Virus record (IMG/VR): IMGVR_UViG_3300006750_000002
Coordinates: 1 to 64,000 of that record
Source of the DNA: a virus
Direction: 5' to 3' (one strand)
Length of the DNA stretch: 64,000 nt
Below, in pieces: positions 15,600-49,438 of this stretch; the stretch's first letter is position 1; each line of letters begins with the position of its first letter. A program made the translations under genes and the position numbers. A model generated the notes under the pieces. That model was not told the DNA's origin and did not search any database. It was given only the letters and a program-made list of their open reading frames with translations.

Positions 15600-15606
15600 A
15601 ATCGAA

Positions 15607-16862: not shown

Positions 16863-16867
16863 AGGTT

Positions 16868-20636: not shown

Positions 20637-20744
20637 CTCTTACTAATCTATCATAGTTCTTAGGTGACTCGCAACAAGTATTCCTTATACCAATAAGTTT
20701 AGACCATTCAAATACCTTCATATTAACATACATAACACTTTTAA

Positions 20745-20834
20745 TTATAAAGTCAATTTTTTGTAGGCCTCTAATAATTCTTTTGGCGTTTGACCCCAAT
20801 TACATGAAAATGCTATTTTAATATCTTTTTTCAT
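20745..20834 (-). pseudogene. Truncated 5' end of a GT10-like gene (29 aa)
   Basis: MKKDIKIAFSCNWGQTPKELLEAYKKLTL* aligns by eye with the N-terminus KIYFINGWGEPNPTLNARYSKQTP of ORF 19197-20036. Confidence 0.55.
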
Positions 20835-20835
20835 T

Positions 20836-30366: not shown

Positions 30367-30418
30367 AGTTTCTTTTTATCTATAAATATTAATGCATTCG
30401 TTAAATATTTATTTATGT

Positions 30419-33214
30419 ATGGGACCACAGAATTTAAATAACTATTACTTCAATAAATTAGACGCTAGGTTAGATTATAGTAGTTACTATGACATATTTT
30501 TAACGTCTGATGAATGGGATTACAACCGAGAAGTTGTATTTTCCCCTTACCTTATTTGTGTGGGTGACCACATTAATAACTATCTAAGTGGTGAGACTTG
30601 GTGTTCAGACTGTTTACCCTTATGGGTTGATTTGGGCAACCCTAAATCTAGTAGACAAATTTCTCCGTATTTGTGTACCGATTACGATGAAAACAATACT
30701 TTATTAAGTTTACCATACTGGTGTTCCGCATCACCTAACTCTAGCGATACCCAATGTACTTGTCCTAAATGTCAAAATAGAGAATTTACGGGACAAACTA
30801 AAGAGAAAACCTTGGTGTTTGTAGAATCGATTTGTGATGTTGGGTTAACTGGTGTTGACAATGGCCTGGTACAATACATGAGTGGTAATACCAATGAGTT
30901 TGACGTGTGTAAACTTTCATTAGTTAAAGTTAGTGCGTTTACAAGTACAATAACTGGAACTACGGCGGTGACGGGAATCTGCCAACCAACTGACGTAAGT
31001 TTGGGTACACATACCCCACCCAAGGTGAGTTACGATATATTAAATGGTGATTTGTTGATTGAGTACCCGTGTATTAAAAAACATGGTAGTTTAGGTCCTG
31101 GTGTGTCGTCGGGTTCGACGACAGTTAGTAACTTTAGTTTGGTTAATTCCGCTATGACATATTCGGGTTGTTGTAATTTTATCGCTGAAAGCGGTTATAC
31201 CTTCACTATTTCAGATGTTAATATAATTCTTTCCGCAGGTACAGAAAATAATGGCATTTTTACTGGTAAGACAACTATAGACTATGGTTACTGGGAAGCA
31301 CCTTGTAAACTAGACTCACTTAAAATATGGACTGATATGCCTGACCAGTATAAGTGGGACCATTTGCATTATGATAGAAGATTTAAAATGAAACAGGTCA
31401 CTGGTTTAACTCACCAGTACAGTTATGGCATAGAATCGGTTTCGGGTCAGACGGAAGGGTACTATAATAACTTAAGAGGTGGATTTTACCAAGGATTCTA
31501 CGAACTTTATGGTTACCCTTACCAAGTCTTACCTGAAAGGGCCGAGTGTGGTTGGACAGTAGAAAGTCTATTAAAATTTGATGTCGAATGTGTTACTGAA
31601 TGTATAATTCCTGGTTCTAAAACGTTAAACGATGTGTACAAGGGGAATAAAGGAATATATTTCTATATGGGCACCCGAGCAGAAAATAAGTTCCATAATT
31701 TTTACTCTGCGGAGACCCACCTAAATACGTGTGACCAAAATGACTATAGTTGTTCAGGTATACCTATCCCAATCGTAACTACAGGGACTACTGGCCACTG
31801 TGGTACGGAGGTCCAAGTTATTACCTCTACTTATGATGAAAAAATAGATTCTTTAAGTAACTCTTTTGCCCTTCGGTTGACTGATGAGGGTAGAGTGGGA
31901 TACAAAGCTTTATATTATACAGGTAGTTGTGCTACCACCTACTCAGACAAAAAGGTTTTAGATTGTAACACTAATGAGTACTATGTTGTAAAAGATTGTG
32001 TTACAGGATTAACATATATTTCTGATTACACCATTATAGAAAAATATAGTGATATTGTTTGTGGGTTAACTGGGAGTACTTTTGTGGAGACTTGTCCTTG
32101 GCTATTAATAAGTGCCAGATTCCAAAGAGACTATTGTTACGAAGGGTGTGATTTAGAAAATAAAGGTGGGGTAAATGATTTAATCAATATACCAATTATC
32201 GACACTCCAGGATATATAGATTCTGGTTTAAATAGCACCTCAGTTAGTTTAGTTAGGGAATCACCGTTAATGCCTGGATGGCAAGACCAGGGAAACAAAG
32301 TGGTAGTGACAGGTCAATATTTGGGTCCTGGTGATGTGGTAACTGGTTGTACAACTACAGAGTGTTGTTCTGAATGTGCACAACCCAACTGTTCTGGGTG
32401 TGGACCCGGAAGGGGTTGTACCACAAATTATACTAAATTGACTGAAGAAATTAAATTTTCTAAAAAATGGTCTGACGAAAGATTTTTAAGAAAAGGAACT
32501 TTAACTATTTTTGTTAACGGAAGACCTGTCTTAGTGGACCCTGATTTTGAAGAAATAATACCTAGAAGGTTAAACACCGAAAAGCAAAAACAAGTTGGTG
32601 TCCCGTTTAATATTTCATGGGGTGGTGGAACCCAAGGCCTTATAGATAACCAAACATTTAGTGTGGATACAAGTGGTAACACCATCACCTGCCCTCCGTA
32701 TGTTCAAGACCCAAACGATTTAGGTTTACTAATAGAAAAGAATTTTGCGGGAACCTATATAGGGGGAATATCCCAATTAAGGTATTATATTAGGCCTTTG
32801 GGTGTGGATGAAATTTTCCACAATTTCTTGGTTAATAAAGACCGTTATGATTTAGTAGATTGTGCGGGGGGTTGTACGAATGGGTGTGGACCATGTCCCG
32901 CTATCATAATAAGAGATTGTGATTCTTTAGATATAATATTAGATTTTGCTGTAGGACAGGATATGGTTGCGGTGGATAGTTTAGCTCAATTTATTGTACC
33001 TCCAGAATATATATCTGTTAAATTTACGGGGGTGCTGGTGGATAATGTCATTAGTTATACCATAACCCGTATAGAAAATATGAAGACAGGCCCGAGTTCC
33101 ATAGTTACCACACCTTTTTTAGCCTCACCAACCGACGTAATCCAAGTAGACATAGTTAAATTTGATGTCACAAAAGAATCTAAAGTAAGTATTATAGGCA
33201 ATTTAACTAAGTAA
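30419..33214 (+). CDS. Cys-rich virion structural protein with LamG/concanavalin-like elements (likely start MGPQN)
   Basis: LTIFVNG and IGGISQLRYYIRPL...EI..NF resemble LamG termini; many Cys and [ST]GxT motifs. Confidence 0.55.
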   Translation: MGPQNLNNYYFNKLDARLDYSSYYDIFLTSDEWDYNREVVFSPYLICVGDHINNYLSGETWCSDCLPLWVDLGNPKSSRQISPYLCTDYDENNTLLSLPYWCSASPNSSDTQCTCPKCQNREFTGQTKEKTLVFVESICDVGLTGVDNGLVQYMSGNTNEFDVCKLSLVKVSAFTSTITGTTAVTGICQPTDVSLGTHTPPKVSYDILNGDLLIEYPCIKKHGSLGPGVSSGSTTVSNFSLVNSAMTYSGCCNFIAESGYTFTISDVNIILSAGTENNGIFTGKTTIDYGYWEAPCKLDSLKIWTDMPDQYKWDHLHYDRRFKMKQVTGLTHQYSYGIESVSGQTEGYYNNLRGGFYQGFYELYGYPYQVLPERAECGWTVESLLKFDVECVTECIIPGSKTLNDVYKGNKGIYFYMGTRAENKFHNFYSAETHLNTCDQNDYSCSGIPIPIVTTGTTGHCGTEVQVITSTYDEKIDSLSNSFALRLTDEGRVGYKALYYTGSCATTYSDKKVLDCNTNEYYVVKDCVTGLTYISDYTIIEKYSDIVCGLTGSTFVETCPWLLISARFQRDYCYEGCDLENKGGVNDLINIPIIDTPGYIDSGLNSTSVSLVRESPLMPGWQDQGNKVVVTGQYLGPGDVVTGCTTTECCSECAQPNCSGCGPGRGCTTNYTKLTEEIKFSKKWSDERFLRKGTLTIFVNGRPVLVDPDFEEIIPRRLNTEKQKQVGVPFNISWGGGTQGLIDNQTFSVDTSGNTITCPPYVQDPNDLGLLIEKNFAGTYIGGISQLRYYIRPLGVDEIFHNFLVNKDRYDLVDCAGGCTNGCGPCPAIIIRDCDSLDIILDFAVGQDMVAVDSLAQFIVPPEYISVKFTGVLVDNVISYTITRIENMKTGPSSIVTTPFLASPTDVIQVDIVKFDVTKESKVSIIGNLTK

Positions 33215-33239
33215 AAAACTATTTATAAAATAAAAAAAT

Positions 33240-35414
33240 ATGTCTTGTAAATGTAAAAATATTATAGAAAACTTCCAAGGAGGGTCAATTCCTTTAGATA
33301 CAATATTTGGGGGTAACGTTCAAATATGTGGTGCTGGTAAAACCCTAAGTGTAGAAAATATAATAGGTTGTTCACCAGTAACCATAGGTAATGACAGTGG
33401 TTGTACTTCAGGTAATACTGCTTTAGTGGTAAGCGGAAGTTCTATATTTGGGTGTGACGTAAATATATTGGGGAACATATATAGTGGTGGTACTAACTTG
33501 ATGGATATTTTTTCGTCTGGTGGTTCTGGCACTGATTACTACACAACAGGTTTTACATTTAACCCAGCTAACTACGACCTAACAGTTAGTCTTAATAATG
33601 GTAATAATTTAACACAGAATTTGGGTATTTTAGCTGGTGATTTAACAGTGACTGGTGGTACTTATAATCCATCAAATGGTGTTGCCACATTTACCAATAA
33701 CCGTGGTGGTACTTTTGATGTTACTGGGTTTTTAACTGGTTATACAGATACTGATGTTTTCGTTACAGGTGGAACGTATATCGGTAACACATTAGAATTT
33801 ACAAATAATAGTGGTGGAACATTTAGTGTAACTGGAATTACTGGTACTGATTACTACACAACTGGTCTTACATTTAACTCAGGAACTTATGATTTAACTG
33901 TAAGTTTAAATAATGGAAGTGCTTTTACACAGAGCTTAGGTATATTATCTAGTGATATGACCATTACTGGTGGTACATATAACCCATCAAATGGTGTTGG
34001 TACATTTACAAATAATAGTGGTGGTACATTTCAAGTAACAGGATTTTTAACTGGTTATACCGACATATATACAACTGGTGTAACATTAAATGGTAACAGT
34101 ATTGAATTTGATAGAACTGACACATCTAATGCATATTCTGTAGATTTATCCCCAATATTATCAGGGTTTTCAGGTACTGATGTCTTTGTTACTGGTGGAA
34201 CTTATAGTTCATCAGCGGCAACAATAACTTTTACGAATAATACTGGTGGTACCTTTACTGTAACAGGTATATCTGGTGGTACTGGTAGTACTTCACCTGC
34301 TGGTTCTAATACACAAATACAATTCAATGATAGTGGTTCGTTTGGAGCAAATACAGGGTTTACATTTGATACCACTAGCCAAACTTTATTTACTGAGTCT
34401 AATGTCAGTGGGACTAGTGTTAATTTTTACAATGGGTTATCCAATTTTGATGTTGGTTTTGGTAGTACAGAAGTAATAGGTACGACTACGATTTATAATG
34501 CCGACCCGATTGGTAGTACTAGTGGTGTTACTATGTTCACTATGGGTGATTTAACCGATGTATTTGGTGAGGATAACAGTTACTTATTAGGGTTTATCAA
34601 TGCTACTGGTAATACTAATAGTCTTATCGTTGGTACTCCTGAAAGTACTAGGATTGTGTATCAACCATCAGATGGTGGTGGTAGTAGTAATTATATCGCA
34701 GTTGGTTATGGTGGTATCACTAATGAAATATTAAGCGGTAAAACATTCGAGGTTCAGGGTGTTTCTAATACATTATTAAACGTTAATAATTCTGGAACCA
34801 CATTCCACAGTGCTTATACGTTTCCAACAACGGACGGAAACCAAGGCCAAGTACTTAAAACAGATGGTGGTGGTAGTGTATCTTGGTCTAACGGTACAAG
34901 TGGTTTGTTTGCACAAACTGGTGATAGTACAACAGTGTCGGCCACTACAGGAACAACTACATCAATTATTGGTTCGGGTGTCGGTGAATTTAAATTTCCA
35001 GCTAATACTCTACAAGGAGGGGATACATTTCATATTAAGTGTGGTGGACTTTTAAAAAATATTGGGGCTTCAGGTTTAGCCTTTAACCTTTCAGGTGCAA
35101 CAGAATTATTAGATACTGGAATCATCGGTAACAACGGAGCAGTTAGTACATCAATTGACAGACCGTGGGAATTAGAAATTGATTTAACAATAAGGTCAAC
35201 TGGTGCCATCGGTACTGCTATAGTTGTTGGTGAATTTAATTGGGCGGGACTTTTACTACCTGGTGGTGCTGGACTTAGTGTAAATCGTTGGAATTTTCAT
35301 CAAAGCTCATCAATAGATACCACCGTTGATAATGCATTAGACTTAGCTGTAGAATTGGGAGACCTTACTTCAGCAATATATTCTCAGTTAACTTATCTTA
35401 ATAAAGTTTATTAG
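33240..35414 (+). CDS. Gly/Thr-rich tail fibre-like protein with internal repeats
   Basis: VTGGTY and TNNxGGTF repeats; AGSNTQIQFNDSGSFG motif; FPTTDGNQGQVLKTDG motif typical of fibres. Confidence 0.7.
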   Translation: MSCKCKNIIENFQGGSIPLDTIFGGNVQICGAGKTLSVENIIGCSPVTIGNDSGCTSGNTALVVSGSSIFGCDVNILGNIYSGGTNLMDIFSSGGSGTDYYTTGFTFNPANYDLTVSLNNGNNLTQNLGILAGDLTVTGGTYNPSNGVATFTNNRGGTFDVTGFLTGYTDTDVFVTGGTYIGNTLEFTNNSGGTFSVTGITGTDYYTTGLTFNSGTYDLTVSLNNGSAFTQSLGILSSDMTITGGTYNPSNGVGTFTNNSGGTFQVTGFLTGYTDIYTTGVTLNGNSIEFDRTDTSNAYSVDLSPILSGFSGTDVFVTGGTYSSSAATITFTNNTGGTFTVTGISGGTGSTSPAGSNTQIQFNDSGSFGANTGFTFDTTSQTLFTESNVSGTSVNFYNGLSNFDVGFGSTEVIGTTTIYNADPIGSTSGVTMFTMGDLTDVFGEDNSYLLGFINATGNTNSLIVGTPESTRIVYQPSDGGGSSNYIAVGYGGITNEILSGKTFEVQGVSNTLLNVNNSGTTFHSAYTFPTTDGNQGQVLKTDGGGSVSWSNGTSGLFAQTGDSTTVSATTGTTTSIIGSGVGEFKFPANTLQGGDTFHIKCGGLLKNIGASGLAFNLSGATELLDTGIIGNNGAVSTSIDRPWELEIDLTIRSTGAIGTAIVVGEFNWAGLLLPGGAGLSVNRWNFHQSSSIDTTVDNALDLAVELGDLTSAIYSQLTYLNKVY
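33528..34064 (+). repeat. 222-nt (74-aa) intragenic direct repeat, two copies (33528-33749 and 33843-34064)
   Basis: GTDYYTTG[FL]TFN...TGFLTGYTD occurs twice; shorter TDVFVTGGTY units at ~33750 and ~34176. Confidence 0.85.
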
Positions 35415-35458
35415 TGTTTAATTAGGTTACATATACAAATAATAAAAAAAATAAAAAA

Positions 35459-35833
35459 ATGGAATTTTTTATAAGAAAAGACTCATTAGAACCAGTATTA
35501 AAAATGCAATTAATACAAGATGGTAGAAACGACTTTAGAAAGTTTTACCAAGGATTAGAGAACGCTTCTTTAAGTTTTTCTATGAAAAAGGTAGATACTG
35601 GAGAATATGTTATTTTGAATAAAGCCGCAGGAATCGTACAAAAAACAGAGTTAGACCCCATCAATGACCCAGAATATTACATTTATTATAGATGGCAACC
35701 TTCTGATGTTATGGAAACAGGTAGATATCAAGGACAATTTTTGATAGAATTTTTAACCGAAGGCACACAGTTAGTGGCACCGATTAGAGAAGACTTATAC
35801 ATCAGCATTCAAGAAAGTTTCGGAATAATTTAA
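35459..35833 (+). CDS. BppU-N-like baseplate/fibre accessory protein
   Basis: FFIRKDSLEPVLKMQL...YYRW...D...GRYQGQF.IEF pattern. Confidence 0.5.
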   Translation: MEFFIRKDSLEPVLKMQLIQDGRNDFRKFYQGLENASLSFSMKKVDTGEYVILNKAAGIVQKTELDPINDPEYYIYYRWQPSDVMETGRYQGQFLIEFLTEGTQLVAPIREDLYISIQESFGII

Positions 35834-35834
35834 A

Positions 35835-35863
35835 TTGACATCCCCCCAACAGTTTCTTATATT
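35835..35863 (+). promoter_or_regulatory. Sigma70-like promoter TTGACA-N17-TATATT upstream of DNA polymerase
   Basis: Near-consensus -35/-10 with 17-nt spacer. Confidence 0.55.
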
Positions 35864-35931
35864 TTAATTAATGTTAAGTAAAATTCACCATCGAGGTGAA
35901 GCTAATATTACAAACGAAAATTATTATATAC

Positions 35932-38643
35932 ATGAAGCCTACACAAGAAGAAATTCAACAATTTTTAGAGGGTGGTGACCCTGAAAAATACATAGTAGCG
36001 GTAGAATACGATTACCGTAGTAGTTCTATATTTAAAATCAAAGAAGACCCAATTAATGGTAAACAAATAATTAAAGATAAATTTGTGCCTTTTGCTTGGG
36101 TCGGTGATTTACGACCCCATAAGTTTTATTCTAATAGTAAAGTTAGGCAAAAAGAAGCCATGTCCAAACATGGGATTATTATAGAAAAATTAAATAACCA
36201 TGAACAACCTAGGTTAGTTGAAGGGTTAAATTTTATAATTAAAACCACGAAAACCTACCAGAACTTAGTTTCGTTCTTTAGGGAAGGTGGAGTAAACCCT
36301 TGGGGGGAGGAGAGTAGGCAAGCTATCATCATATTATCGCCAGTAGAACAATACTTAATCCAAAAAGAAAAAAGACTATTTAAAGGTTTCGAGAACTATA
36401 ACGACATCCATAGATTGGTTTTTGATATCGAAACAACCGCTTTACGTCCTACCGATGGCATGATTTTTTTGGTGGGAATATTAGATAATAGGGGTAATAG
36501 TGAGATATTCTACGCTCACGACGATGAAAGTGAAAGGCAACTCATTATTAGTTTCTTTGAAACTTTAAATCGGGTTCGACCTACTATTATAGGTGGGTAT
36601 AACTCTTCCTCATTCGACTGGGAGTGGATGTTTAAACGTGCAGAGATACTCGGACTTAATATAACTGAAATTTCCAACACTCTTCATCCAAACATAAATA
36701 TTAGAAGAAGGGAGTCTAGACTAAAGTTAGGAGCTGAAATGGAAGAGTATATGTCCACTAATATGTGGGGATATAACATCGTTGATATAGCACACGCGGT
36801 TAGACGAGCCCAAACTATTAATTCAGACATTAAGAGTTGGGGACTTAAATACATAACCCAATTCATAGGAGCAAATAAAGAAAGTCGTGTGTATGTTCCA
36901 GGAGATAAGATATCTTCAATATATGAAGAAAATTTAGACTATTTCTTTAACCCACGGACGGGCAATTACAAACTAAAGGACACTAAGGGTTTAAGTGATT
37001 TAGTTCGTAAACACCCGAATGTTTATGCGGAGGTCAGTGGTCAATATATAATTAAAAAATATCTAGAGGGGGACATTGAAGAAACTTTAACAGTAGATGA
37101 GGAATTTAACCAAGCTTCATTTCTTTTAGCTTCTATGGTACCTACAACTTATGAAAGAGTTTCCACCATGGGGACAGCAACATTATGGAAAATGTTAATG
37201 TTATCGTGGTCATATAAATACAATCTAGCCATCCCGAAGAAAGATGAACAAAGGCCATTCGTAGGTGGGTTATCTAGATTACTTAAGACTGGTTACTCCA
37301 CTAATGTTTTAAAGTTAGATTTTAGCTCGTTGTACCCTTCTATCCAGTTAGTGCATAACGTTTTTCCTGAGTGCGACGTTACTGGGGCTATGGAATCTAT
37401 GTTAAAATATTTTAGGGACACAAGAATCAAATATAAGAAATTAGCCTCTAAATACTCTGGTGTTGACGATAAAAAGTCCTCATCCTATGGTAGAAAACAA
37501 CTGCCTATTAAAATTTTCATTAACTCCATGTTCGGTTCTTTATCCGCTCCTCAGGTTTTCCCTTGGGGTGAAATGGATATGGGTGAAATGGTGACCTGTA
37601 CTGGAAGGCAATATCTTAGACATATGATAAGATGGTTTATGGAAAGGGACTACTCCCCTTTAGTGTTGGACACAGATGGGGTAAACTTTTCGTCACCAGA
37701 AGGTGTGGAAGAAAGACTTTATATTGGTAAAGGAAATAACGAATTAGTTGTGGAAGATAAAGAATATAAAGGTGCAGACGCAGATGTGGCTGAATATAAT
37801 GATTTATATATGAGAGATGAAATGGGGTTAGACACTGACGGCACTTGGCCTTCCTGTATAAATGTAGCTAGAAAGAATTATGCTTTATTGACAGATAAAG
37901 GTAAGGTTAAATTAACTGGTAACTCAATCAAGTCTAAAACACTGCAAGGGTTTTTGGTGGAGTTTATCGATGAGGGGTTAGAAATGTTATTAAACGGTGA
38001 TGGTAAGTCTTTTATTGAACATTACTATTCTTATGTTGACAAAGTATACAATAAGGAAATCCCACTATCTAAAATAGCTAACAAATCCAGAGTAAAGTTA
38101 ACGGTAAATGAGTATAAAGAAAGAGCAAAAAGAGTGACAAAAGCTGGTAACCCTATGTCAAAAATGGCACACATGGAATTGGTTATTAGAGAGAACTTAA
38201 GGGTTAATCTAGGGGATACGATTTATTACGTTAATAATGGTACAGCGATGTCTCACGGTGACGTACAAAATAAAAAGTTAAAAGATGGGACTAAAGAAAC
38301 AATTCTTAGGTGTTATAGAATCCCAGAAAAAGATATAGAGGAATCACCTGAAACGTGTGGTGACTATAATGTCGCTAGGTATATGAATACGTTTAATAAA
38401 AGAGTTGAGCCTTTACTAGTTGTTTTTAAACCAGATGTTAGAGATAGTCTCATAGTTACGAAACCAGAAGATAGGCAGTTTTTCACTAATAAACAATGTG
38501 AATTAATAAATGGTTTAACGAGAAGGGAAGGGGACCAGGATGATTTAGACGATGTTCTTTCTCTTTCTACTGAGGAACAGGTATTTTGGGGTAAGATGGG
38601 TCAGAATCCAGATAGGTTCTTAGAACCACTAGGAATTTTTTAA
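35932..38643 (+). CDS. polB: DNA polymerase family B (likely start MKPTQEE)
   Basis: Exo FDIET, GYNSSSFD; polymerase LDFSSLYPSI, KIFINSMFG, LDTDG, RKNYA. Confidence 0.93.
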   Translation: MKPTQEEIQQFLEGGDPEKYIVAVEYDYRSSSIFKIKEDPINGKQIIKDKFVPFAWVGDLRPHKFYSNSKVRQKEAMSKHGIIIEKLNNHEQPRLVEGLNFIIKTTKTYQNLVSFFREGGVNPWGEESRQAIIILSPVEQYLIQKEKRLFKGFENYNDIHRLVFDIETTALRPTDGMIFLVGILDNRGNSEIFYAHDDESERQLIISFFETLNRVRPTIIGGYNSSSFDWEWMFKRAEILGLNITEISNTLHPNINIRRRESRLKLGAEMEEYMSTNMWGYNIVDIAHAVRRAQTINSDIKSWGLKYITQFIGANKESRVYVPGDKISSIYEENLDYFFNPRTGNYKLKDTKGLSDLVRKHPNVYAEVSGQYIIKKYLEGDIEETLTVDEEFNQASFLLASMVPTTYERVSTMGTATLWKMLMLSWSYKYNLAIPKKDEQRPFVGGLSRLLKTGYSTNVLKLDFSSLYPSIQLVHNVFPECDVTGAMESMLKYFRDTRIKYKKLASKYSGVDDKKSSSYGRKQLPIKIFINSMFGSLSAPQVFPWGEMDMGEMVTCTGRQYLRHMIRWFMERDYSPLVLDTDGVNFSSPEGVEERLYIGKGNNELVVEDKEYKGADADVAEYNDLYMRDEMGLDTDGTWPSCINVARKNYALLTDKGKVKLTGNSIKSKTLQGFLVEFIDEGLEMLLNGDGKSFIEHYYSYVDKVYNKEIPLSKIANKSRVKLTVNEYKERAKRVTKAGNPMSKMAHMELVIRENLRVNLGDTIYYVNNGTAMSHGDVQNKKLKDGTKETILRCYRIPEKDIEESPETCGDYNVARYMNTFNKRVEPLLVVFKPDVRDSLIVTKPEDRQFFTNKQCELINGLTRREGDQDDLDDVLSLSTEEQVFWGKMGQNPDRFLEPLGIF

Positions 38644-39501
38644 TCCGTCTGAAGAAAGAATGAACCAACCATCACCATTGGATAGTATTTCTATACTACT
38701 TTGGGGGCCCATACTAACCTCTTCCCATTCCCCATCTATTTTGCCTAATTTAGTTTTTACTGTAATGTTTGCCATAGATTTTATATAGAACCTATTCAGG
38801 GATTTATCGTTAAGTGTGATGATTAAATCCTCAGTAGCTATAATGTATCTAGTAGATGAGGTCACATAGTCTTGGACAATGGTAATAGGAACATTTTCTA
38901 CTGTTTCCACAGTTTTTTCTATAACTGGTGCCGTACCGTGTTTTAATATGGAAATTAAAGCTATCGTAAGTAGTTTATAACTTATACCATCGGGTTCTCC
39001 ATTTTTATTATACGTTACAAAATCAGTCAACCCTACCGAGTCTACTTCTTCCGCGATTAAACCTACAGAAGGTTTGTTATTATTTTTCCATTTAAACCTT
39101 ACAGGGGTTAATTTTAAAATAGGACTTAATTCATTAAACGATAAGGGCACTACATCTTTTTTATATCTTAAGGATGATGCAGCTTTAAAAACTTCGTTGG
39201 TCGTAGTATCTATTTCTAATTCATTTCCGCTCCCAGTAGGAATTAAATCAGAGTTTATTTGGACGGCGGATTTGCCGTAAGTCAAATCTGGGTCCACACC
39301 CATAGAAAAAACAGCTGTATTTGCGGAGGTAGAAGTAAAATTAAAATTATAGGTAGAGCTTATGCCAGATAAACCTATAAAGACATTTTGTTGGAGTTTG
39401 CTGCTCCCAGACATTTCAGCGGTGGTATTACAATTTTGGTATATCTGCCTAGAAAAATCTGCTTTTGTTCTTAAACCGTGTCCTGGATATTTGTATCCCA
39501 T
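38629..39501 (-). CDS. Tail fibre-associated protein with peptidase S74 (intramolecular chaperone) domain
   Basis: SSLRYKKDV...LKLTPVRFKWK...VGLIAEEV. Confidence 0.8.
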   Translation of the reverse strand: MGYKYPGHGLRTKADFSRQIYQNCNTTAEMSGSSKLQQNVFIGLSGISSTYNFNFTSTSANTAVFSMGVDPDLTYGKSAVQINSDLIPTGSGNELEIDTTTNEVFKAASSLRYKKDVVPLSFNELSPILKLTPVRFKWKNNNKPSVGLIAEEVDSVGLTDFVTYNKNGEPDGISYKLLTIALISILKHGTAPVIEKTVETVENVPITIVQDYVTSSTRYIIATEDLIITLNDKSLNRFYIKSMANITVKTKLGKIDGEWEEVSMGPQSSIEILSNGDGWFILSSDGLKNS

Positions 39502-39502
39502 A

Positions 39503-40621
39503 TTATATTACGTTATAGGGGTCTTGGAAGGGTCGATACCCCAAGGCTTTATTTAGATTTTCAGCTACCATAGCTTTTCTCTCCATCATTTTATCCTCCC
39601 TTAATCTTTCTAATCTCAATGTTAACTCCTCAGTTAATTTAGTTTTTTCATCCTGAGATTCACTAAATAACGAAGAGTAGTCCATGGTTAGTTCACTATC
39701 TGGAACCTTCAAGGCACCACTAAATTTACCCCTAACTCTACCTAAAGTTTCTTTCGCTAAAGCTGTGAAATATCTTCTTACCCATGCTCTTGCGGGAGAA
39801 TTTAAGTCAATCCATTCTATGTCACTTATTGGTGCGTCTGAGGGAACTCTAATAATGTCCTTATTTTCAGCTAAACAATCATTCACATTATCGGGATTAA
39901 CGTCATAATACCAATACCATACCCTACCACCTCTCATTTCTGAATTGCCGAAGTCAAAATTACCACCAGGTACGTTATAAAGGTGTAAATACCTAGTACC
40001 TTCTGGTCCTGTAGTGACCCTGTAAGTTAAATCAGACCCTATTAGTCTATTTTTAATATTTCGGTCTTGCATTCTAAGTAAAATGTCGTAAGCAGGCATC
40101 ATATAATACGAACCAACCATACCCATTTGAGCCATTCCAGCACCGGCCATTCCACCTCCACCTAAACCACCGAACGCACCCATAAATGGGTCAATTAACA
40201 TTTCATTAAGTTCTGGGCGATTATACCACATTATTTCATTTATTTCTCTTCCCGCTGGTATTTGATATATCTGTTGGTTTGGAACTAACTCCACATAGTC
40301 CTTTTTAAGAATCCAAGGGCCCATAGTCTGTAACCCAACAATTTTAGAATACGCATAAGTAAAGGAACTCTCCCAGTCCAAACTCCTAGTAGTGTAGGCT
40401 CTAGCTAAATCCGCTTCATCAACATTAATACCACCTAAAGAAGCCCACTGATTTTCAATTAACCAGTCATTAACATACATAGCGTAGTCTTGGATTGCTA
40501 TGTCCAATAATGAATCCAACATATCATCTTCTAATTCCACACCTACAATTGGTGCTCCTAACTGGTGTTTGAGTTGGGTATAAAGTCTCTGTTTATCTAA
40601 TATGGAAACGTTAGTTGGCAT
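39503..40621 (-). CDS. Neck/head completion protein (T4 gp13-like)
   Basis: LKHQLGAPIVGVELEDDMLD; WVRRYFTALAKETLGRVRGKF. Confidence 0.8.
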   Translation of the reverse strand: MPTNVSILDKQRLYTQLKHQLGAPIVGVELEDDMLDSLLDIAIQDYAMYVNDWLIENQWASLGGINVDEADLARAYTTRSLDWESSFTYAYSKIVGLQTMGPWILKKDYVELVPNQQIYQIPAGREINEIMWYNRPELNEMLIDPFMGAFGGLGGGGMAGAGMAQMGMVGSYYMMPAYDILLRMQDRNIKNRLIGSDLTYRVTTGPEGTRYLHLYNVPGGNFDFGNSEMRGGRVWYWYYDVNPDNVNDCLAENKDIIRVPSDAPISDIEWIDLNSPARAWVRRYFTALAKETLGRVRGKFSGALKVPDSELTMDYSSLFSESQDEKTKLTEELTLRLERLREDKMMERKAMVAENLNKALGYRPFQDPYNVI

Positions 40622-40659
40622 AATCTTTTTTTATATAAATATTACTAATTCTATTAGTT

Positions 40660-42402
40660 TCAAATATTATGGAGTTCATTAAATAATTCTGTCATAATAT
40701 CAGTCTCTGGGTTAAGAGGTACATCTCCCATAACCGTATCTATTATGTTTTTCTTTTTACGGAGGATGTTGTATATGATTCTTTCTAAGGTATTATCGAA
40801 AGTAGGGTAAAAACAAGACACGTTTTTTTTCTGACCTATCCTAAAGGCTCTATCTTCCGCTTGTGAATGGTCGGAAGGTACAAAACTTAAATCGTTCATT
40901 ATAACCGCTTCTGCTGAAGTAAGGGTAATTCCTACACCTCCCGCTTTAATATTAGATATGAAAATTTTAATGTCTGGGTTGTTTTGGAATTCATCTACAG
41001 ATTTTTGCCTTTCTTCTTTAGACATCTGTCCGTGTAAAACCACCGACTGGTGTGTGTAGTGTGAATGCAACTCCATTAGGGGAGCGGTGAAGTTGGTGAA
41101 AACAATTACCTTTTTATCTTGTTCCAAGATATCATTAATTATCTGACGAGTATATGTGATTTTCTCTGAAGCAATAATTTGCCTTACTTTTGTGAGTTTA
41201 GCAAGATGAATTGTAATACTTTCGTTTTGGTTTTCATCAGACCACGACAAATACTCACCCATTTCCTTTTCATACTCCTCAGATACCAATTCCAAATAGA
41301 TTGGTGTAATAATTTTATCTGGTAAGTCTAATACGTCTTCTTTTAATCGTCTTGTTATTTTGTCTTGTGTACGGTCTCGTAACTCTTCTAAGTTGGAGGC
41401 TCCACTTACGTTCCATATTTTTCTACCGTTCGGGCCTCTAAATTGTCTACCCTCACAATACCTCTTCACATATGCGACCCAGTTATTAGCTACCCTACTA
41501 TTGACTAGGTTAAGTAGGTTATAGTAATTAATGGGTCTAGATGTCATAGGAGTTCCCGTCAGTAACCAAACCTTACCTAACTTCAAGGAAATTTGGTTAA
41601 TTATCTTGGTTCTTTGTGCTTTAGGGTTAGAAATATAATGGGCTTCATCAATTATCACTCTTTCTACGCCAGATTCCAACAATGTTCTAACACTTTTATT
41701 TTTAAGTGAGTGGAAATTTTTAAGAATATCATAATTTACAATTATATATTTACCTTCTTTCCAATTTTTCCCTTCGACTATGACCACCTCCTCATCAGTA
41801 TAGTTCTCTATTTCCCTCTTCCAGTTTATTTTAAGGGAAGCTGGACATATCACTAGAGTACATTTAGGGTTTTCCACAATACTTGCTATGACAGCTGAAG
41901 TAGTTTTACCCAAACCCATATCGTCAGCTAAAATATACATATCGTTTTTTAATAAATCCTCGATGGCTGGTTTCTGGTGTTCCATTGGGGGCCTGTGATT
42001 AAAGGGAGAATAATCCACGGTTACTTTTTTACTGTTGGTAGGTACTATTTGTGACTTAGGTACCCAGAACGAATATAACTTTTCAGAGTCTATAACTTTT
42101 CCCCATATATGGTATGCTTTATCTGAGGTAACCAATATCTTTTCTACCCATATTTCTGTTGGTGCTTTGGGCAATAACTTTTTTTCTTGCAACTCTTGGG
42201 AAAAATAAAGGTCTATTTTTACCTTTTTTCTTGCAATCTTAGGGACAATATCATGGTTGCCTATAACATAATCTGATTGGTTCCTAGTTAAATTATAATA
42301 TTCACTTTTAATTTTTTCTTTTAAATCTAAGATAAAATTATTTGCACCATTATACCCTGTGAGTATTCCGCGTGCTTCTACTTCCGGTATTTTTAATTCC
42401 AC
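40660..42402 (-). CDS. SNF2-family helicase (SMARCAL1/HARP-like)
   Basis: LADDMGLGKT, VICPASLKINW, IDEAHY, LTGTP, GVGITLT, QAEDRAFRIGQ. Confidence 0.92.
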   Translation of the reverse strand: MELKIPEVEARGILTGYNGANNFILDLKEKIKSEYYNLTRNQSDYVIGNHDIVPKIARKKVKIDLYFSQELQEKKLLPKAPTEIWVEKILVTSDKAYHIWGKVIDSEKLYSFWVPKSQIVPTNSKKVTVDYSPFNHRPPMEHQKPAIEDLLKNDMYILADDMGLGKTTSAVIASIVENPKCTLVICPASLKINWKREIENYTDEEVVIVEGKNWKEGKYIIVNYDILKNFHSLKNKSVRTLLESGVERVIIDEAHYISNPKAQRTKIINQISLKLGKVWLLTGTPMTSRPINYYNLLNLVNSRVANNWVAYVKRYCEGRQFRGPNGRKIWNVSGASNLEELRDRTQDKITRRLKEDVLDLPDKIITPIYLELVSEEYEKEMGEYLSWSDENQNESITIHLAKLTKVRQIIASEKITYTRQIINDILEQDKKVIVFTNFTAPLMELHSHYTHQSVVLHGQMSKEERQKSVDEFQNNPDIKIFISNIKAGGVGITLTSAEAVIMNDLSFVPSDHSQAEDRAFRIGQKKNVSCFYPTFDNTLERIIYNILRKKKNIIDTVMGDVPLNPETDIMTELFNELHNI

Positions 42403-42468
42403 AATACGATAATTATCTAACCTAAATATAAGGAAGAACTGGATATTTATAAATAAAAAACCTTAGCA

Positions 42469-42984
42469 ATGAGTAAAAAGAGAGTACCAATAACTAGAGT
42501 AAATAAATTTTTCGGTGACGAAGATTTTAGACTACAAGAGTCTATGGGTATGGAATATCTACACGGAAACCTAAATTTTACTTTAGTATTATATAGTGTC
42601 GATAGGAGTAAGAGTGTTACCGACGATGTGTATGGTGAAGCCGCACAAGAAGAAATAAGGTTTTTTCCACCCGTCGAATTTAAAGCTCTAGTGAATATTT
42701 CTGGACCTACTAACGATAGTTACGCGAATGGTTTAATGAGATATTTAGAAAGTGGTAATTTAACTATTAGTGTATATAAGAAAGAATTAGACCAACTAGA
42801 TATAGATATAAAGTATGGTGATTACATTGGATATCCCGAAACCGAAGATTTTACTAGATATTTCACAGTTTCCAATGACGGTAGGGTAGCTGGTGATAAT
42901 GCACATACTATATTGGGGTACAAATCTTTTTATAGAACGATAACCTGTGTTCCAACCAGTGATAACGAGTTTAAAGGAATTTAA
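42469..42984 (+). CDS. Neck/head completion protein (T4 gp14-like)
   Basis: Position before gp15-like gene; DDVYGEA and YGDYIGY motifs; late motif upstream. Confidence 0.55.
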   Translation: MSKKRVPITRVNKFFGDEDFRLQESMGMEYLHGNLNFTLVLYSVDRSKSVTDDVYGEAAQEEIRFFPPVEFKALVNISGPTNDSYANGLMRYLESGNLTISVYKKELDQLDIDIKYGDYIGYPETEDFTRYFTVSNDGRVAGDNAHTILGYKSFYRTITCVPTSDNEFKGI

Positions 42985-42986
42985 TT

Positions 42987-44075
42987 ATGGGTAGGATTAA
43001 TAAAAAAATAAAAAAAACGTTAAATATGTATCCTGTGGTGGGAAACCAACCACAGTACCCTTCTGGGTATGACGGATTATCAACCCCAAAAAGAAGAAAA
43101 CAACTAGCAGAGTTTATTAGTGAGGACGGCACTTTCTTACCTAAAAGTGTGTTGCATGCAGATTTAGATAGGGGGATGTTAGATTTTGTCAATGACCGTT
43201 TAAAAATATCAGTAGATGGAAAACCCATATCAATAGTAGACCAAATACTAACAATCCAAAGATGGGCAGAGTTTTCTAATACTTGGTCTTTTGCGGATAA
43301 AGATTTGAATCCTGAAATTCCTTTTTTAGTTACAGTTAGAAATCCAGCGGTACAATATGGGACTAACCCATCCTTAACGTATACCATCCCAGATAGGAGA
43401 ACTTTCCATTACGCTAAGGTACCAACTTGGGATGGCCAAAGAAAAGGAATGGATTTATATAAAATACCACAACCAGTACCCGTAGATATAACATACGACT
43501 TAAAGATAGTATGTAATAGAATGAGGGAACTCAACCAATTTAATAAGGTAATGATGCAAACTTTCACCTCTAGACAAGCCTATACCTTCGTGAAAGGACA
43601 CTACATCCCAATTATAATGGAAACTTTAAGTGACGAAAGTCAAATATCTGACAATGAAAAAAGAAAATTTTATACACAAAATTATCAACTGCAACTGCAG
43701 GGATTTTTAATTGATGAAGAGGAGTTTGAGATTACACCCGCGATTACTAGAAAGTTGTTAGTGTTTGAGACTGAGACAAAAACCAAAAAGAGGAGATTAG
43801 AACCGACCAAAGAAAATCCTAGAGGCATATTTACACAAACGTTTACACTAAACGTGGCTGTGGTGGAGTTATCAGTACCGTTTGAGTACGATGCAAATGT
43901 TCAGGTATTAGACACTACCAATAATGATACGTATACTGTGCATTTAGATGGTGAGTTGGTCAGTGATGAATTTACTACTTATTATGTTTCTAGGGGCCAG
44001 ACACTACTCTTTAAAATGACACCCACGGATGCTTTGCAAGAACAAACAGTCACTCTAGAGACAAAGTTTATCTAG
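42987..44075 (+). CDS. Tail terminator/completion protein (T4 gp15-like)
   Basis: PVPVDITYDLKI...ELNQF pattern; lies just before the sheath gene. Confidence 0.6.
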   Translation: MGRINKKIKKTLNMYPVVGNQPQYPSGYDGLSTPKRRKQLAEFISEDGTFLPKSVLHADLDRGMLDFVNDRLKISVDGKPISIVDQILTIQRWAEFSNTWSFADKDLNPEIPFLVTVRNPAVQYGTNPSLTYTIPDRRTFHYAKVPTWDGQRKGMDLYKIPQPVPVDITYDLKIVCNRMRELNQFNKVMMQTFTSRQAYTFVKGHYIPIIMETLSDESQISDNEKRKFYTQNYQLQLQGFLIDEEEFEITPAITRKLLVFETETKTKKRRLEPTKENPRGIFTQTFTLNVAVVELSVPFEYDANVQVLDTTNNDTYTVHLDGELVSDEFTTYYVSRGQTLLFKMTPTDALQEQTVTLETKFI

Positions 44076-44095
44076 GAATTACCCAAATATACCCA

Positions 44096-44698
44096 TTAAT
44101 CTTCTAGTCTTTCTCCAGTTTCTTTTATTTTAAATTGGGATAGGTTGTTGGTTCCACTACTTCCACGTTTCTTCTTAACGTGGAACACAATACCGTTATT
44201 ATAAAGTTTATTAGGTGTATTAAACATGTCCCCATTAAAATGTAACCTACCATTCTTATCTAATAATACGTCATATTCCATACCCAGATATTTTCGGACC
44301 AGGTTAAGTGGAGCACCGTGCTTTTCAACAACTTCCAATAATCTAGTGTCTTCCTTTAATAAATAACTTTCTTCTTTAATCTCTTCAATATTGTAGATTT
44401 CCCCACCGTAAGCGTTCATAAAATTAATGAAATCACCCTCTAAAGTGTCGTCGTCATCTCTAAACCACTCACCAAAAACCCTACGACTATCCAGTATACT
44501 GTGTAACATTTTTTCTACTTTTCTCATATTATCCACCTTATAAACCGCAACAATTCTATATCTAATGGGTGACTTGGTGTTAGTCAGGGATTGTTCACGT
44601 ACTAATGGGTCTACGGATAACCCAATCTTTTTATCAGAGATATCGATTTCTCTACTTAATACGTCATAATGTTCTCCTAAATAAATGTATCCTTCCAT
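44096..44698 (-). CDS. T5orf172/MUG113 GIY-YIG-like nuclease with RAMA-like C-terminal domain
   Basis: GYIYL, KIGLS, EKMLHSILDSRRVFGEWF; C-terminal YLGMEYDVLLDKNGRLHFNGDMFNTP. Confidence 0.7.
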   Translation of the reverse strand: MEGYIYLGEHYDVLSREIDISDKKIGLSVDPLVREQSLTNTKSPIRYRIVAVYKVDNMRKVEKMLHSILDSRRVFGEWFRDDDDTLEGDFINFMNAYGGEIYNIEEIKEESYLLKEDTRLLEVVEKHGAPLNLVRKYLGMEYDVLLDKNGRLHFNGDMFNTPNKLYNNGIVFHVKKKRGSSGTNNLSQFKIKETGERLED

Positions 44699-44716
44699 GT
44701 TTAGTTTTTAATATTG

Positions 44717-44724
44717 CAAATATA
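44717..44724 (-). promoter_or_regulatory. Bacteroidota -7 promoter element TATATTTG for the nuclease gene
   Basis: 18 nt upstream of the ATG at 44698. Confidence 0.6.
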
Positions 44725-44737
44725 AAAAAAGAATAAG

Positions 44738-44765
44738 AAAAAAATGTTAGATTAACAAATCTAAC
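44738..44765 (-). terminator. Rho-independent terminator
   Basis: Minus strand GTTAGATT-TGTT-AATCTAAC followed by a T run. Confidence 0.6.
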
Positions 44766-44826
44766 GTCTGAGTTTTCTATTAAACCTCTTAAATACCATA
44801 CCGAACTATTTCCTATTAAATTTTAA

Positions 44827-44988
44827 TTAGTGGTCACCATAAATGTCTTTTTTAGGTGAACATTTATCCTTTATTAGTTTCTCCACAAACTGAAACATTT
44901 TTAAACCGTTTCTACCACAATATTCCTTTAATAGTTTGTGAACCCCACTATCTATTTTAATATTTTTTATCTTTTGTGTTGTAAGCAT
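44827..44988 (-). CDS. Small ribbon-helix-helix-like DNA-binding protein (53 aa), not in ORF track
   Basis: Manual translation MLTTQKIKNIKIDSGVHKLLKEYCGRNGLKMFQFVEKLIKDKCSPKKDIYGDH; strand-helix-helix pattern. Confidence 0.6.
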   Translation of the reverse strand: MLTTQKIKNIKIDSGVHKLLKEYCGRNGLKMFQFVEKLIKDKCSPKKDIYGDH

Positions 44989-45120
44989 ACCCATAAGTAT
45001 GAAAAAAGTATGTTTTTTTTCACACCAGAAGTCATAATAGTCAAAAAGATGGTCATCTTTTGGGATTAGAGATAATATTTATTAATAAAATAAAAATAAA
45101 GTACAAAAAAAATAATTAAC

Positions 45121-48100
45121 ATGGCAGCAGACGGCAAAGTTTTTGTATCACCAGGGGTGTACACGTCAGAAAAAGATTTAAGTTTCGTAGCACAAAGTGT
45201 GGGTGTGACCACATTAGGATTAGCTGGAGAGACTATTCAGGGTCCAGCGTTTGAACCTATCTTCATAAGTTCATACGGAGAGTTCCAAACCTACTTTGGT
45301 AGTTTAAGCCCATCAAAGTTTACCGAAACACAAATTCCCAAATACGAATTATCATACATAGCAAAAGCATATTTACAACAATCTAACCAGTTATTCGTAA
45401 CTAGGGTATTGGGTTATTCAGGGTATGACGCGGGACCTTCATGGTCTATAACCACTGTCGCTAATCCTGATTGTGAAACAATTAGGACTCAGTGTACAGA
45501 TACCAGTGGTACCTTATATAGTGCTTCTACTTGTAACACTGGTACGGCATTTGAGTCGGCTACTGGTTCAACAGCTGTAGTTAATACTGGAGACATATCT
45601 CTTTATTTTACTGGTTCTACCTCCGTTTGGACAGATTCTACAACTACCACTAAGCCAGTTACGGCATTACCTTGGCCTATTTCAGGAAATATAAATAATC
45701 CCATAACTAAGACAGATGGTAGTACTACAACAATCTCTGATGAGTTAGATAGTTTGTTATCGACTTACTACAATAGTTTAACTCATGATACTAGTGCGGG
45801 ATGTGCTACAGGAAGTACACCATGTTACCTACCTATGACGGGAGGAACAAGCCAAGAAAAGTCTTTCGGTTGTAATTATAATGGAGATGCCCATTCTGGC
45901 AATACATTATATGAAGGAACTTTCTTAGAGAACGCTACCGACCCATTATCTTCTGGACATACCTATCAAAGTATGTTTAGTGGTATAACGGAAACTTCCG
46001 TACTTGGAAGCTCTTGTAACCCTAAACCTTCAGTATTTTGTAATGATATTAATGACCCTTGGTTATATGGGTTCTTTGACCCTATACCTGGAACAGATAG
46101 TTACAGTGGATTCTCTTTAAGTTTTGGAGTCAACACTAATGAGGTATTTGATATTAGTACTTCGGCATCTACTACCTTATACTCTGGAGGTTCAGCCCTT
46201 AGATATTCTTACACCTTATATACAGGTGAAACTTTCTGTAACTACGATGACCTAGTTGTTGCTACATTCCGTTCAAGAGGTGTTAGTACCAATAATTCAG
46301 GTGGTCCAGTATATCAAGTTACTGGAGGTACTGACGTTAATATGGTGTGTACGGGAAGTACCTTCTCAGAAGTGGGTACAGACCCATTCGCAACTTTCGG
46401 CATGGATGTTACAGATGTGGATGGTGATTCATTTAGATTTGAGACTTCTATGTCACCATCATCATCAGACTACGTTAAAAGAGTATTCGGTGTAGCTCCT
46501 TTTGATAAGGATATGGAACAAGTACCAATCTTCGTAGAGGAAGCCTACCCTAACATGTTGACTTACGCTTATAAGAAGGGATACATTAGAGGACTAAATT
46601 GTAATTTATTAGACCTACCATCTTATAGAGATTCTAATAATACAGGAACTATAGGTTTTTACCAAGAACAATGGCAAACCCCAGTAACTCCGTATGTTGT
46701 TTCTGAGTTAAGAGGTACTAAAGTATACAAACTATTTAGATTCATCTCAATATGTGACGGTAATGCCGCTAACACACAAGTTAAAATCTCAATCGTTAAC
46801 ATCTCTTTTGAAAGAAATGAGTTCGACCTTTTGGTTAGAAGTTTCTACGATACGGACGCTTCTCCTGTGGTATTAGAAAGATACACAAGGTGTAGTATGA
46901 ACCCTAATCTTAACTCTTTTGTGGGTGTTAAAGTTGGTACCGCGAACGGTGAGTATGAACTTAGAAGTAGATACATTATGGTAGATATTGACCCAGAACA
47001 GGAAACCGACACTAATCGTCATGATGCTGTTCCTTGTGGTTTTGAAGGGTACTCCACTAGAAATTATTTAGGGGAACAAAGTCCTACAATATATTATAAG
47101 ACAAAATACAATAAACCAGGTGACATTATATGGAACCCTCCTTTCGCTATTAGTTCTACTGTGGACAATTCTGTGATAAGTGCTGGGGATAAAATTAGAA
47201 GGGTTTATTTAGGCATTTCAGATACTGCAGCGTCAGCATACGATGACGATTTCTTCCAATACAAAGGAAAACAAGCACCAATAGATAAATGTACTGATTT
47301 AGACGGTACTGATTGGAACTGTTTAACCACAGGATTCCACATGGATAAGGGAGCTACTTGTGTTGACACTCTTGGTGAGTTGTGTGTAACCACACTTTGT
47401 AAAAATTGTGGTACTGGTACAACTACCGAAGACCAGTTTTCGGTAGGAGCGGCCACTTTCAGAAGTGAACCAACAGACTCCCAAGACCCATATTACACAT
47501 TACAGTCTAGAAAATTCACATTAGCACCTTATGGTGGATTTGATGGGTGGGACATTTATAGAAAGTCCAGAAGTAACGGAGATAATTACGTAAGGGGTAA
47601 ATCAGGGTTCCTAAACGGAGCATGTAGTTCAACTACGTTCCCTAACGCGTCTGGTGATGGTTCATTTAAAATGTTGTCTCAGACTCCTTGGGGAGAATCA
47701 GGGTTCTTTGCGACTACTGACTATTACGCTTACTACTTCGGTATGAGAACATTTAGAAACCCAGAAGCAGTCAACATCAACGTTTTAGCGACGCCAGGCA
47801 TAGACTATGTAAACAATAGTAACCTTGTAGAGGAAACGATTGACATGGTGGAAACTGAAAGAGCTGATTCATTATATATTACTACCACACCTGACTACAA
47901 TTTGTTTGTACCAGGAACGACAATAGCTTCAAACATAATCCAACCTACTGAAGCTGTGGATAACTTAGATTTAACGGGAATTGACTCTAACTATACAGCT
48001 ACTTACTACCCATGGGTACAGTACAACGACCAAGAAAACAATACTAGAGTATGGTTACCACCTACTTATGATGTAATGAGAAACATCGCTTTAACAGATA

Positions 48101-48606: not shown

Positions 48607-48630
48607 TAAGAAAAGTTAAAAAATTAAAAA

Positions 48631-49377: not shown

Positions 49378-49399
49378 ATTTCCTATATGATATGACAAT

Positions 49400-49427: not shown

Positions 49428-49438
49428 ATTGGGTATTA

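Follow-up and report, generated by a model that had tools for sequence, protein, structure and literature searches.

The general O-glycosylation system of Bacteroidota modifies proteins in the periplasm at the sequon D-[ST]-[AILVMT], using a lipid-linked glycan, a flippase and an oligosaccharyltransferase. Chlorovirus PBCV-1, which has a eukaryotic host, glycosylates its major capsid protein autonomously and without export, at atypical sequons and with glycans N-linked to Asn. Among bacteriophages, phage-encoded glycosyltransferases (GTs) have been shown by mass spectrometry to glycosylate the capsid and tail tube proteins of mycobacteriophages Che8, Corndog and Myrna (Freeman et al. 2023, via PMC12363180), and in Clostridioides difficile the soluble GT SgtA, encoded beside the BclA3 gene, adds the first O-linked sugar to Thr, with Ser tolerated, in G-x-T (PMC7157674). 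Here we analyze the first 64,000 nucleotides (hereafter the window) of the 190.9-kb IMG/VR record IMGVR_UViG_3300006750_000002 (G000, approximately 60% complete), which belongs to a marine, uncultured T4-like jumbo myophage with 34% G+C. Outer virion proteins of this phage are strongly enriched in a short motif, [ST]GxT, and some of them are encoded next to an export-free glycan locus; we put forward, tentatively, that the motif may be the acceptor sequon of a phage-encoded, cytoplasmic protein O-glycosylation.

The arrangement proposed here from sequence, of phage-encoded soluble GTs acting on the phage's own structural proteins without export machinery, resembles that described for the mycobacteriophages, although the targets in that account are capsid and tail tube proteins and its hosts and phage lineages are unrelated to this phage. 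The core G-x-T of the SgtA sites is identical to that of the phage motif, and both cases involve exposed surface proteins and an enzyme gene near a substrate gene, a putative one in the phage. However, the BclA3 sites lie in regular collagen-like GPT triplets of a single protein, whereas the phage sites are irregularly spaced, unlike tandem triplets, and scattered over more than 20 families; moreover, the phage motif needs a preceding [ST] and a hydrophobic residue and excludes Ser at the Thr position. PBCV-1 would be comparable in its virus-encoded machinery with GDP-sugar synthesis, its methylated, fucose-containing glycans and its non-canonical virion sites, but it modifies a single capsid protein, and the bacteriophage considered here has a Ser/Thr motif in numerous tail and fibre proteins. 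With the Bacteroidota system the proposed one would share the principle that a short sequon, of three to five residues, marks many unrelated proteins for one system. The phage locus nevertheless encodes no membrane protein, and D[ST][AILVMT] occurs at expectation in the motif-rich proteins (42 vs 42.1), which sets the proposed phage system apart from that of Bacteroidota; an earlier note on this DNA had contrasted the motif with D-[ST]-[AILVMT] as the sequon of the host, a contrast that finds no support here. As for the definition of sites, those of mycobacteriophages reportedly lie in Ser/Thr-rich C-terminal extensions rather than forming a defined short motif that recurs from protein to protein.

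A five-residue motif in outer virion proteins

Relative to shuffled sequences, [ST]GxT is over-represented in four proteins of the window (Table 1): it occurs 14 times in a Cys-rich lectin-like protein (1.3 expected, z = 11.6), 25 times in a fibre-like protein (4.7 expected, z = 9.8), 11 times in the tail sheath (2.1 expected, z = 6.2) and 5 times in a 521-amino acid (aa) protein (0.8 expected, z = 5.1). These values exactly reproduce the hand counts of the earlier note (about 14, 25, 11 and 5, respectively), as does the count of zero in both the DNA polymerase and the SNF2 helicase. In the whole record, six further large open reading frames (ORFs) are enriched, located in a baseplate/fibre module at 86–113 kb, downstream of a gp6-like wedge gene. 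In the ten G000 proteins taken together, the forward motif is found 138 times against 28 expected (4.9x, P = 6e-50), whereas four compositionally matched controls (the motif read backwards, [ST][GA].S, [GA][ST].T and [ST].[GA]T) reach only 1.0–1.75x in the same proteins. In each of three independent protein sets, the top place in an unbiased scan of all dipeptides and gapped tripeptides goes to TG.T or SG.T.

A composition artefact is ruled out by shuffling, by analytic expectations and by the matched controls, so that the enrichment persists under the correction for Ser, Thr and Gly content that the earlier note had called for. Tandem repeats inflate the count of the fibre-like protein only partially, since 15 sites against 2.8 expected are left after removing two repeat units. 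A DNA-level motif can likewise be discarded: codon usage is the same inside and outside the motif, which indicates that selection acts on the protein and not on the DNA. The sole codon deviation within the motif is the avoidance of ACC before GGN; ACC, TCC and AGC codons are avoided before the Gly codons of the motif because CCGG is depleted genome-wide. In the window, CCGG is approximately four-fold depleted (20 sites vs 78 ± 8 in dinucleotide-preserving shuffles), in what looks like restriction-site avoidance.

Closer description of the sites extends the motif to five residues with a grammar of their own, phi-[ST]-[GA]-x-T, with a hydrophobic residue (phi) at position −1. Position 0 is enriched for Ser (5.9x) and Thr (4.5x) and accepts no other residue; position +1 is enriched for Gly (5.1x) and Ala (4.5x), with Asn, Asp and Ser at about 1x; and position +3 is enriched for Thr (5.1x), with Ser at 1.1x and Cys at about 2x. 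The residue at −1 is hydrophobic at 61% of sites against a background of 34%, and enrichment is 8–9x after hydrophobic residues and about 1x after charged ones. The motif as first described, [ST]GxT, is therefore enriched but incomplete, given the replacement of Gly by Ala and the preference at −1, and its x position does not vary freely, as had been claimed, because Asp, Pro and Arg are rare there. The grammar, the dependence on position −1 included, recurs in three diverged genomes (G000, G001 and G002), with SGxT at about 6x, TGxT at 3–5x and SAxT at 7–9x, Ser at +3 at about 1x and Asn/Asp at +1 at or below 1x; the preference for SAxT over TAxT seen in G000 is repeated in G001 and G002. In motif-rich proteins of these genomes [ST][GA]xC is also enriched, about 2x, and [ST][GA]xS is not, for which the rare N-x-C variant of the N-glycosylation sequon offers a parallel. 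N-x-S/T is at expectation in the motif carriers. The sites are irregularly spaced, without the periodicity of a solenoid, and outside positions −1 to +3 their flanks are not conserved.

The analysis across relatives made use of two near-complete genomes, G001 (93% complete) and G002 (99% complete), of about 220 related IMG/VR loci in sets of 79, 72 and 67, the last reached via the glycosyltransferase, and of three outgroups: T4, cyanophage P-SSM7 and the 484-kb jumbo phage LR756508 (676 ORFs). No close relatives of this genome were found among deposited phages, and no useful cultured relative was found for the lectin-like protein, the region or the double-domain GT2 of the glycan locus; the nearest cultured sheaths are those of cyanophages (gp18), at approximately 27% identity. 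Enriched ORFs number 10 in G000, 15 in G001 and 11 in G002. Members of the lectin-like family in the 79 and 72 loci contain 860 motifs against 129 expected and 801 against 156, respectively, and the 67 further loci contribute 72 enriched ORFs (1016 vs 202). Among five orthologues, 15 motif columns are conserved, as opposed to 0–1 for control motifs, and substitutions at conserved sites stay within the classes S/T and G/A (TGTT/SAET/SGTT, SAGT/SGET). Private sites occur as often as those of control motifs, which dismisses an excess of new gains and identifies the signal as one of longer retention. The structural proteins and fibres of T4 show no enrichment (31 vs 29 expected), P-SSM7 presents only a general 1.2–1.5x excess of all Ser/Thr/Gly motifs, none of it motif-specific, and none of the 676 ORFs of LR756508 is enriched; the comparison with phages lacking the candidate enzymes, suggested by the earlier note, thus finds no motif enrichment in these three.

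The enriched proteins of the three genomes and related loci form at least 22 BLAST-unrelated clusters, in agreement with the prior observation that the motif occurs in unrelated folds. Near-zero BLAST homology among carriers, together with flanks that are not conserved beyond −1, rules out a shared hidden domain. On the basis of its AlphaFold model (pLDDT 73.7), the lectin-like protein is predicted to be a ConA-like lectin/LamG jelly roll with putative carbohydrate binding, a fold that fits a receptor-binding virion protein: VIA-align matches it to the lectin-like domains of tetanus Hc, CBM40 and a cyanopodophage tailspike (Z 14.9–14.0, 195–234 aligned residues, rmsd 2.9–3.4), and Foldseek returns no match at or below 1e-3. 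Its family is made up of more than 500 proteins, with identities as low as 30%, and every one of them is enriched 4–15x. Many of them (relatives P0046–P0119, e.g. P0046, with 989 aa) carry a fused papain-family peptidase C1 domain (PF00112). The fibre-like protein falls in the largest BLAST cluster of enriched proteins, and its gene slot is occupied in relatives by non-homologous ORFs that are likewise motif-enriched.

The tail sheath provides an internal control. Its assignment draws additional support from Foldseek matches to the KP1 and T4 sheaths (E = 2e-4 to 8e-4) and from Pfam PF04984 and PF17482 matches below cut-offs, and cyanophage sheaths align only to its residues 682–1161. The earlier note had placed nearly all sheath motifs in non-conserved insertions, and 10 of the 11 [ST]GxT sites indeed map to residues 148–414, in the lineage-specific N-terminal part; when [ST][GA]xT is considered, the only site outside the N-terminal cluster (Table 1) is at 47413–47424 (residue 765). 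In 120 sheath homologues, the N-terminal part contains 1058 motifs against 264 expected (4.0x), and the conserved C-terminal 482 residues contain 147 against 121 (1.2x). DNA polymerase is similarly close to expectation in 61 orthologues (21 vs 18.8).

The G002 orthologue of the 521-aa protein is enriched (6 vs 1.1 expected) and encoded approximately 1.3 kb from a gp23-type capsid gene, and the product is probably a head-associated or decoration protein; its nearest named Atlas cluster is CBM96, a name held by just 14% of cluster members and hence a lead only. The endosialidase-chaperone protein of the window, probably a small fibre or spike, contains no motif itself, yet its orthologues are enriched (37 vs 8.8). 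Its gene sits among replication genes. The G002 capsid protein is mildly enriched (5 vs 1.1).

In the relatives, the top compositional signals of large proteins are poly-Thr tracts in G001 and Pro/Thr-rich linkers in G002, mucin-like tracts that would be further candidate substrates of O-glycosylation. G001 also encodes a 4512-aa ORF with 215 cysteines (G001:C1:187576-201114). A 2919-aa collagen-like protein of (Gly-Thr/Ala-x)n triplets (G002:C1:181308-190067; loci L102–L103) by itself skews the proteome-wide expectations for Ser/Thr/Gly motifs in G002, and has the forward motif far less often than expected (18 vs 87). Avoidance of the motif by non-virion proteins was considered and rejected, because the depletion seen in G002 (121 vs 166) is gone once this protein is removed; the apparent depletion in conserved enzymes of relatives was not upheld as avoidance either.

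Conserved glycosyltransferases and a variable cassette

The glycan locus spans 8.6–27.6 kb. No flippase, exporter or oligosaccharyltransferase was found in it; it encodes no membrane protein, and none of its enzymes, including the two GTs discussed below, contains a transmembrane-like segment. Soluble glycosyltransferases of the phage's own, unaccompanied by export machinery, are also a feature of mycobacteriophage-type virion glycosylation. Part of the locus is a glycan-tailoring cassette encoding a GDP-mannose 4,6-dehydratase, an epimerase/reductase, three sulfotransferases, several methyltransferases, a GT10-like fucosyltransferase and a GT25. Homologues of cassette genes are present in just 1–12 of the 79 related loci, and the cassette is therefore not the constant partner of the motif.

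Two glycosyltransferases behave differently. The double-domain GT2 occurs in every locus whose upstream flank is long enough (55 of 55 and 63 of 63) and in both G001 and G002; T4, P-SSM7 and LR756508 have no homologue of it. The second enzyme, encoded approximately 2.8 kb upstream of the lectin-like gene, yields sub-threshold Pfam matches to Glyco_transf_4 in its N-terminal half and to Glyco_trans_1_4 in its C-terminal half, and these weak GT4/GT1 halves would be compatible with a GT-B fold. This GT-B-like enzyme is among the most conserved genes of the lineage, with 57–65% identity in G001 and G002, where the lectin-like protein is 32–46% identical; no homologue was found in P-SSM7 or LR756508 (T4 was not searched). 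In G001 synteny is broken, yet the GT-B-like and GT2 genes both adjoin the capsid gene. A search of PDB sequences with both GTs produced no match. The GT-B-like enzyme itself contains no motif over approximately 130 orthologues, against about 26 expected, orthologues not being independent.

A glycan locus with neither an exporter nor a known acceptor makes the conserved soluble GTs obvious candidate readers of the motif. With the motif grammar constant, the cassette in few relatives and the GTs constant, the conserved pair is a better candidate than the variable fucose/sulfate cassette, and the GT-B-like protein is the prime candidate for the reader or initiating enzyme. The assignment of the motif to the adjacent GT/sulfotransferase system as a whole, made in the earlier note, is thereby partly supported and narrowed: a linear tag absent from the outgroups agrees with it, but the cassette, found in few relatives, is not the better candidate.

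Alternative readings of the motif

What was found is a short linear motif with position-specific rules, over-represented irrespective of fold, as sequon-directed glycosylation has it. We tentatively favour the interpretation of phi-[ST]-[GA]-x-T as an acceptor sequon of phage-encoded cytoplasmic O-glycosylation, which in our judgment falls just short of probable. The motif would be a short linear tag, kept by selection on the outward-facing proteins of a marine lineage of T4-like jumbo phages: the sheath insertion domains, baseplate and fibre proteins, the lectin-like protein and a head-proximal protein. A conserved soluble glycosyltransferase, the GT-B-like enzyme and probably the double GT2 together with it, would recognize the tag and add a first sugar to a hydroxyl; the swappable cassette, providing GDP-fucose synthesis, GT10/GT25, and methyl- and sulfotransferases, would then elaborate the glycan, and the released particle would be sugar-coated. 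The broader proposal, a general system in which the GT-B/GT2 pair reads a five-residue code at dozens of sites on more than 20 outer virion families and the cassette builds strain-specific glycans bearing fucose, methyl and sulfate groups, is possible, and we hold it with somewhat greater reserve. We infer sugar attachment, the tag-reading enzyme and the acceptor residue from sequence patterns. Position 0 is favoured as the putative acceptor because Ser and Thr are interchangeable there and +3 is strictly Thr, which would make the latter analogous to the recognition Thr at the end of N-x-T; by analogy with BclA3, the Thr of the G-x-T unit at +3 may alternatively be the acceptor.

Independent contrasts were sought by searching with the GT-B-like enzyme against a 50%-representative library, yielding 325 clusters at E < 1e-30, and by fetching phages with distant homologues. 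Two of three unrelated phages chosen solely for a distant GT-B homologue (G007, G008 and G009) show forward-specific enrichment and the same −1 rule. In G008 (loci L241–L243), an 893-aa ORF (3737–6418) contains 25 motifs against 6.2 expected, forward-specific and with the hydrophobic −1 rule, and a second ORF (48460–50244) contains 9 against 2.2 with the same properties; G007, a complete 28.7-kb genome without GT2, is moderately enriched. Further scans for independent lineages by means of distant GT-B homologues found nothing.

Several results weigh against glycosylation as the explanation. No member of the lineage without the GTs was found for GT2 (present in 118 of 118 loci), and the GT-B-like enzyme is in 125 of the 128 loci with enough flank, so that the association between motif and GTs amounts to one evolutionary event; it is confounded by phylogeny, as one lineage is compared with three outgroups. 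The enrichment in G009 is non-specific only, and in 13 loci from other lineages that encode GT-B homologues none of the ORFs within 10 kb is enriched, although the flanks of these loci may hold no virion genes. The remainder of the proteome does not significantly avoid the motif in G000 (34 vs 42 expected), nor does it in G002 after removal of the collagen-like protein (103 vs 79). No cultured relative was found in the phage collection. Finally, several of the deeply conserved sites map to the lectin core, itself conserved, and to predicted mid-strand positions, which is also compatible with a structural role.

Such a role is the strongest of the rival explanations, and one that we consider somewhat unlikely. 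It would have the motif mark a favoured strand end or tight connection in all-beta surface domains expanded in this lineage, with no enzyme reading it. Mapping of the motif on predicted structures, which the earlier note had proposed as a check, speaks both for and against it. In the two AlphaFold models, most sites in confidently modelled regions are at strand ends, hairpin loops and strand-to-loop boundaries, with the −1 hydrophobic residue within the strand, and sheath sites are in loops, hairpin turns or strand ends; contexts are nevertheless mixed, with plain loops, several helix-end sites and four mid-strand sites. About eight sites persist throughout the lectin-like family, to identities as low as 30%, with x fixed within each site, and the origin of the enrichment in retention, without surplus new gains, as well as the lack of avoidance elsewhere in the proteome, would be expected of a structural element too. 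A folding rule, however, should be universal, and no specific enrichment is seen in the corresponding all-beta proteins (fibres, baseplates and sheaths) of T4, P-SSM7 and LR756508, an absence that a universal rule cannot explain. The substitution pattern is also the opposite of that predicted for a positive-phi turn, since Ala freely replaces Gly and Asn/Asp do not; this eliminates the recurrent beta-turn named as an alternative in the earlier note, when understood as a positive-phi turn. Neither the exclusion at +3 of a Ser that is interchangeable at position 0 nor the distribution of the motif over at least 22 unrelated families is easily accommodated by a structural rule.

A lineage-specific factor reading a linear tag is the simplest account of these patterns, but that factor could be other than a glycosyltransferase. 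Phosphorylation, methylation, acylation, Cys cross-linking or binding by a fibre-assembly chaperone would be served equally by the sharp grammar, fold independence and lineage specificity of the motif. The locus does encode methyltransferases, and Cys at +3 is enriched about 2x in the three genomes, in carriers that are unusually Cys-rich. Against this, the two glycosyltransferases are the only suitable conserved enzymes identified beside the carriers, where the conserved small neighbour genes have no family match, and a large export-free glycan locus needs an acceptor; we accordingly rate a different reader as unlikely. A ligand-contact role, in which arrays of Thr-small-x-Thr would form a flat, hydroxyl-rich surface binding polysaccharide or ordered water, much as DUF3494 ice-binding proteins carry a motif of the type T-A/G-x-T/N, could suit the lectin-fold and fibre-like carriers, which probably bind host glycans, but is highly improbable given that site spacing is irregular and without solenoid periodicity, that no carrier matches a Pfam family, DUF3494 and all beta-solenoid families included, that sites fall in loops and low-confidence regions besides sheets, that neither the preference for a hydrophobic residue at −1 nor the exclusion of Asn at +3 is to be expected of such a surface, and that the sheath insertion domains have no obvious ligand.

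Features of the window and significance of the motif

The features of the window on which the analysis relies are listed in Table 1. The capsid protein was not found on this fragment, its sole Gp23 match being weak and stop-interrupted. Between the sheath and tail-tube genes lie approximately 3.8 kb of ORFs on both strands (48631–52244), including two polynucleotide-kinase-like ORFs (50351–50794 and 51576–52244).

Table 1. Location of motif carriers, glycan-locus genes and control genes in the window.
Feature	Coordinates	Strand	Evidence and motif content
521-aa protein without known family	2153..3718	-	5 [ST]GxT
Variable glycan-tailoring cassette	12441..22262	-	Pfam matches
Double-domain GT2 glycosyltransferase (Glyco_tranf_2_5 + Glycos_transf_2)	22259..23797	-	Pfam E = 1.4e-31, 2.6e-16
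GT-B-like (GT4/GT1-like) glycosyltransferase	26363..27586	-	phrog_7162 'glycosyltransferase', E = 3.9e-42
Cys-rich (42 Cys) lectin-like protein	30392..33214	+	14 [ST]GxT and 5 [ST]AxT; predicted ConA-like/LamG jelly-roll core, large insertions
Variable Gly/Thr-rich fibre-like protein	33240..35414	+	25 [ST]GxT; no Pfam or PHROG family, 'fibre' putative
Family-B DNA polymerase	35896..38643	+	0 motifs; negative control
Small fibre-like protein with endosialidase-chaperone (Peptidase_S74) domain, 290 aa	38629..39501	-	PF13884, E = 6e-9; no motif
SNF2 helicase	40660..42402		0 [ST]GxT
T4-type tail sheath (gp18) with large lineage-specific N-terminal insertion region	45121..48606	+	phrog_23, E = 2.9e-54, residues 867-1159
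Sheath motif-site cluster, residues 134-414	45520..46362	+	12 of 13 [ST][GA]xT sites
Tail tube protein (inner tail part)	52394..52882	+	phrog_4542, E = 1.9e-29; 0 motifs, negative control
Hub protein	53592..54368		0 motifs

The lineage that carries this motif is very large, uncultured and marine, with at least 8000 close homologues of the sheath and the glycosyltransferase in public data. Even if the motif is not a sequon, a pentapeptide grammar maintained lineage-wide on unrelated outer proteins calls for explanation. If it is, it would be the first glycosylation sequon to be defined in a bacteriophage, and would supply an otherwise orphan glycan locus with precise acceptor sites that can be tested and with two candidate enzymes; a portable tag of five residues, paired with a soluble enzyme, would, in that case, also be useful for glyco-engineering. 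For the phages themselves, coating the sheath, baseplate and fibres with glycans could have consequences for adsorption, particle stability, grazing and aggregation at sea, and host range.

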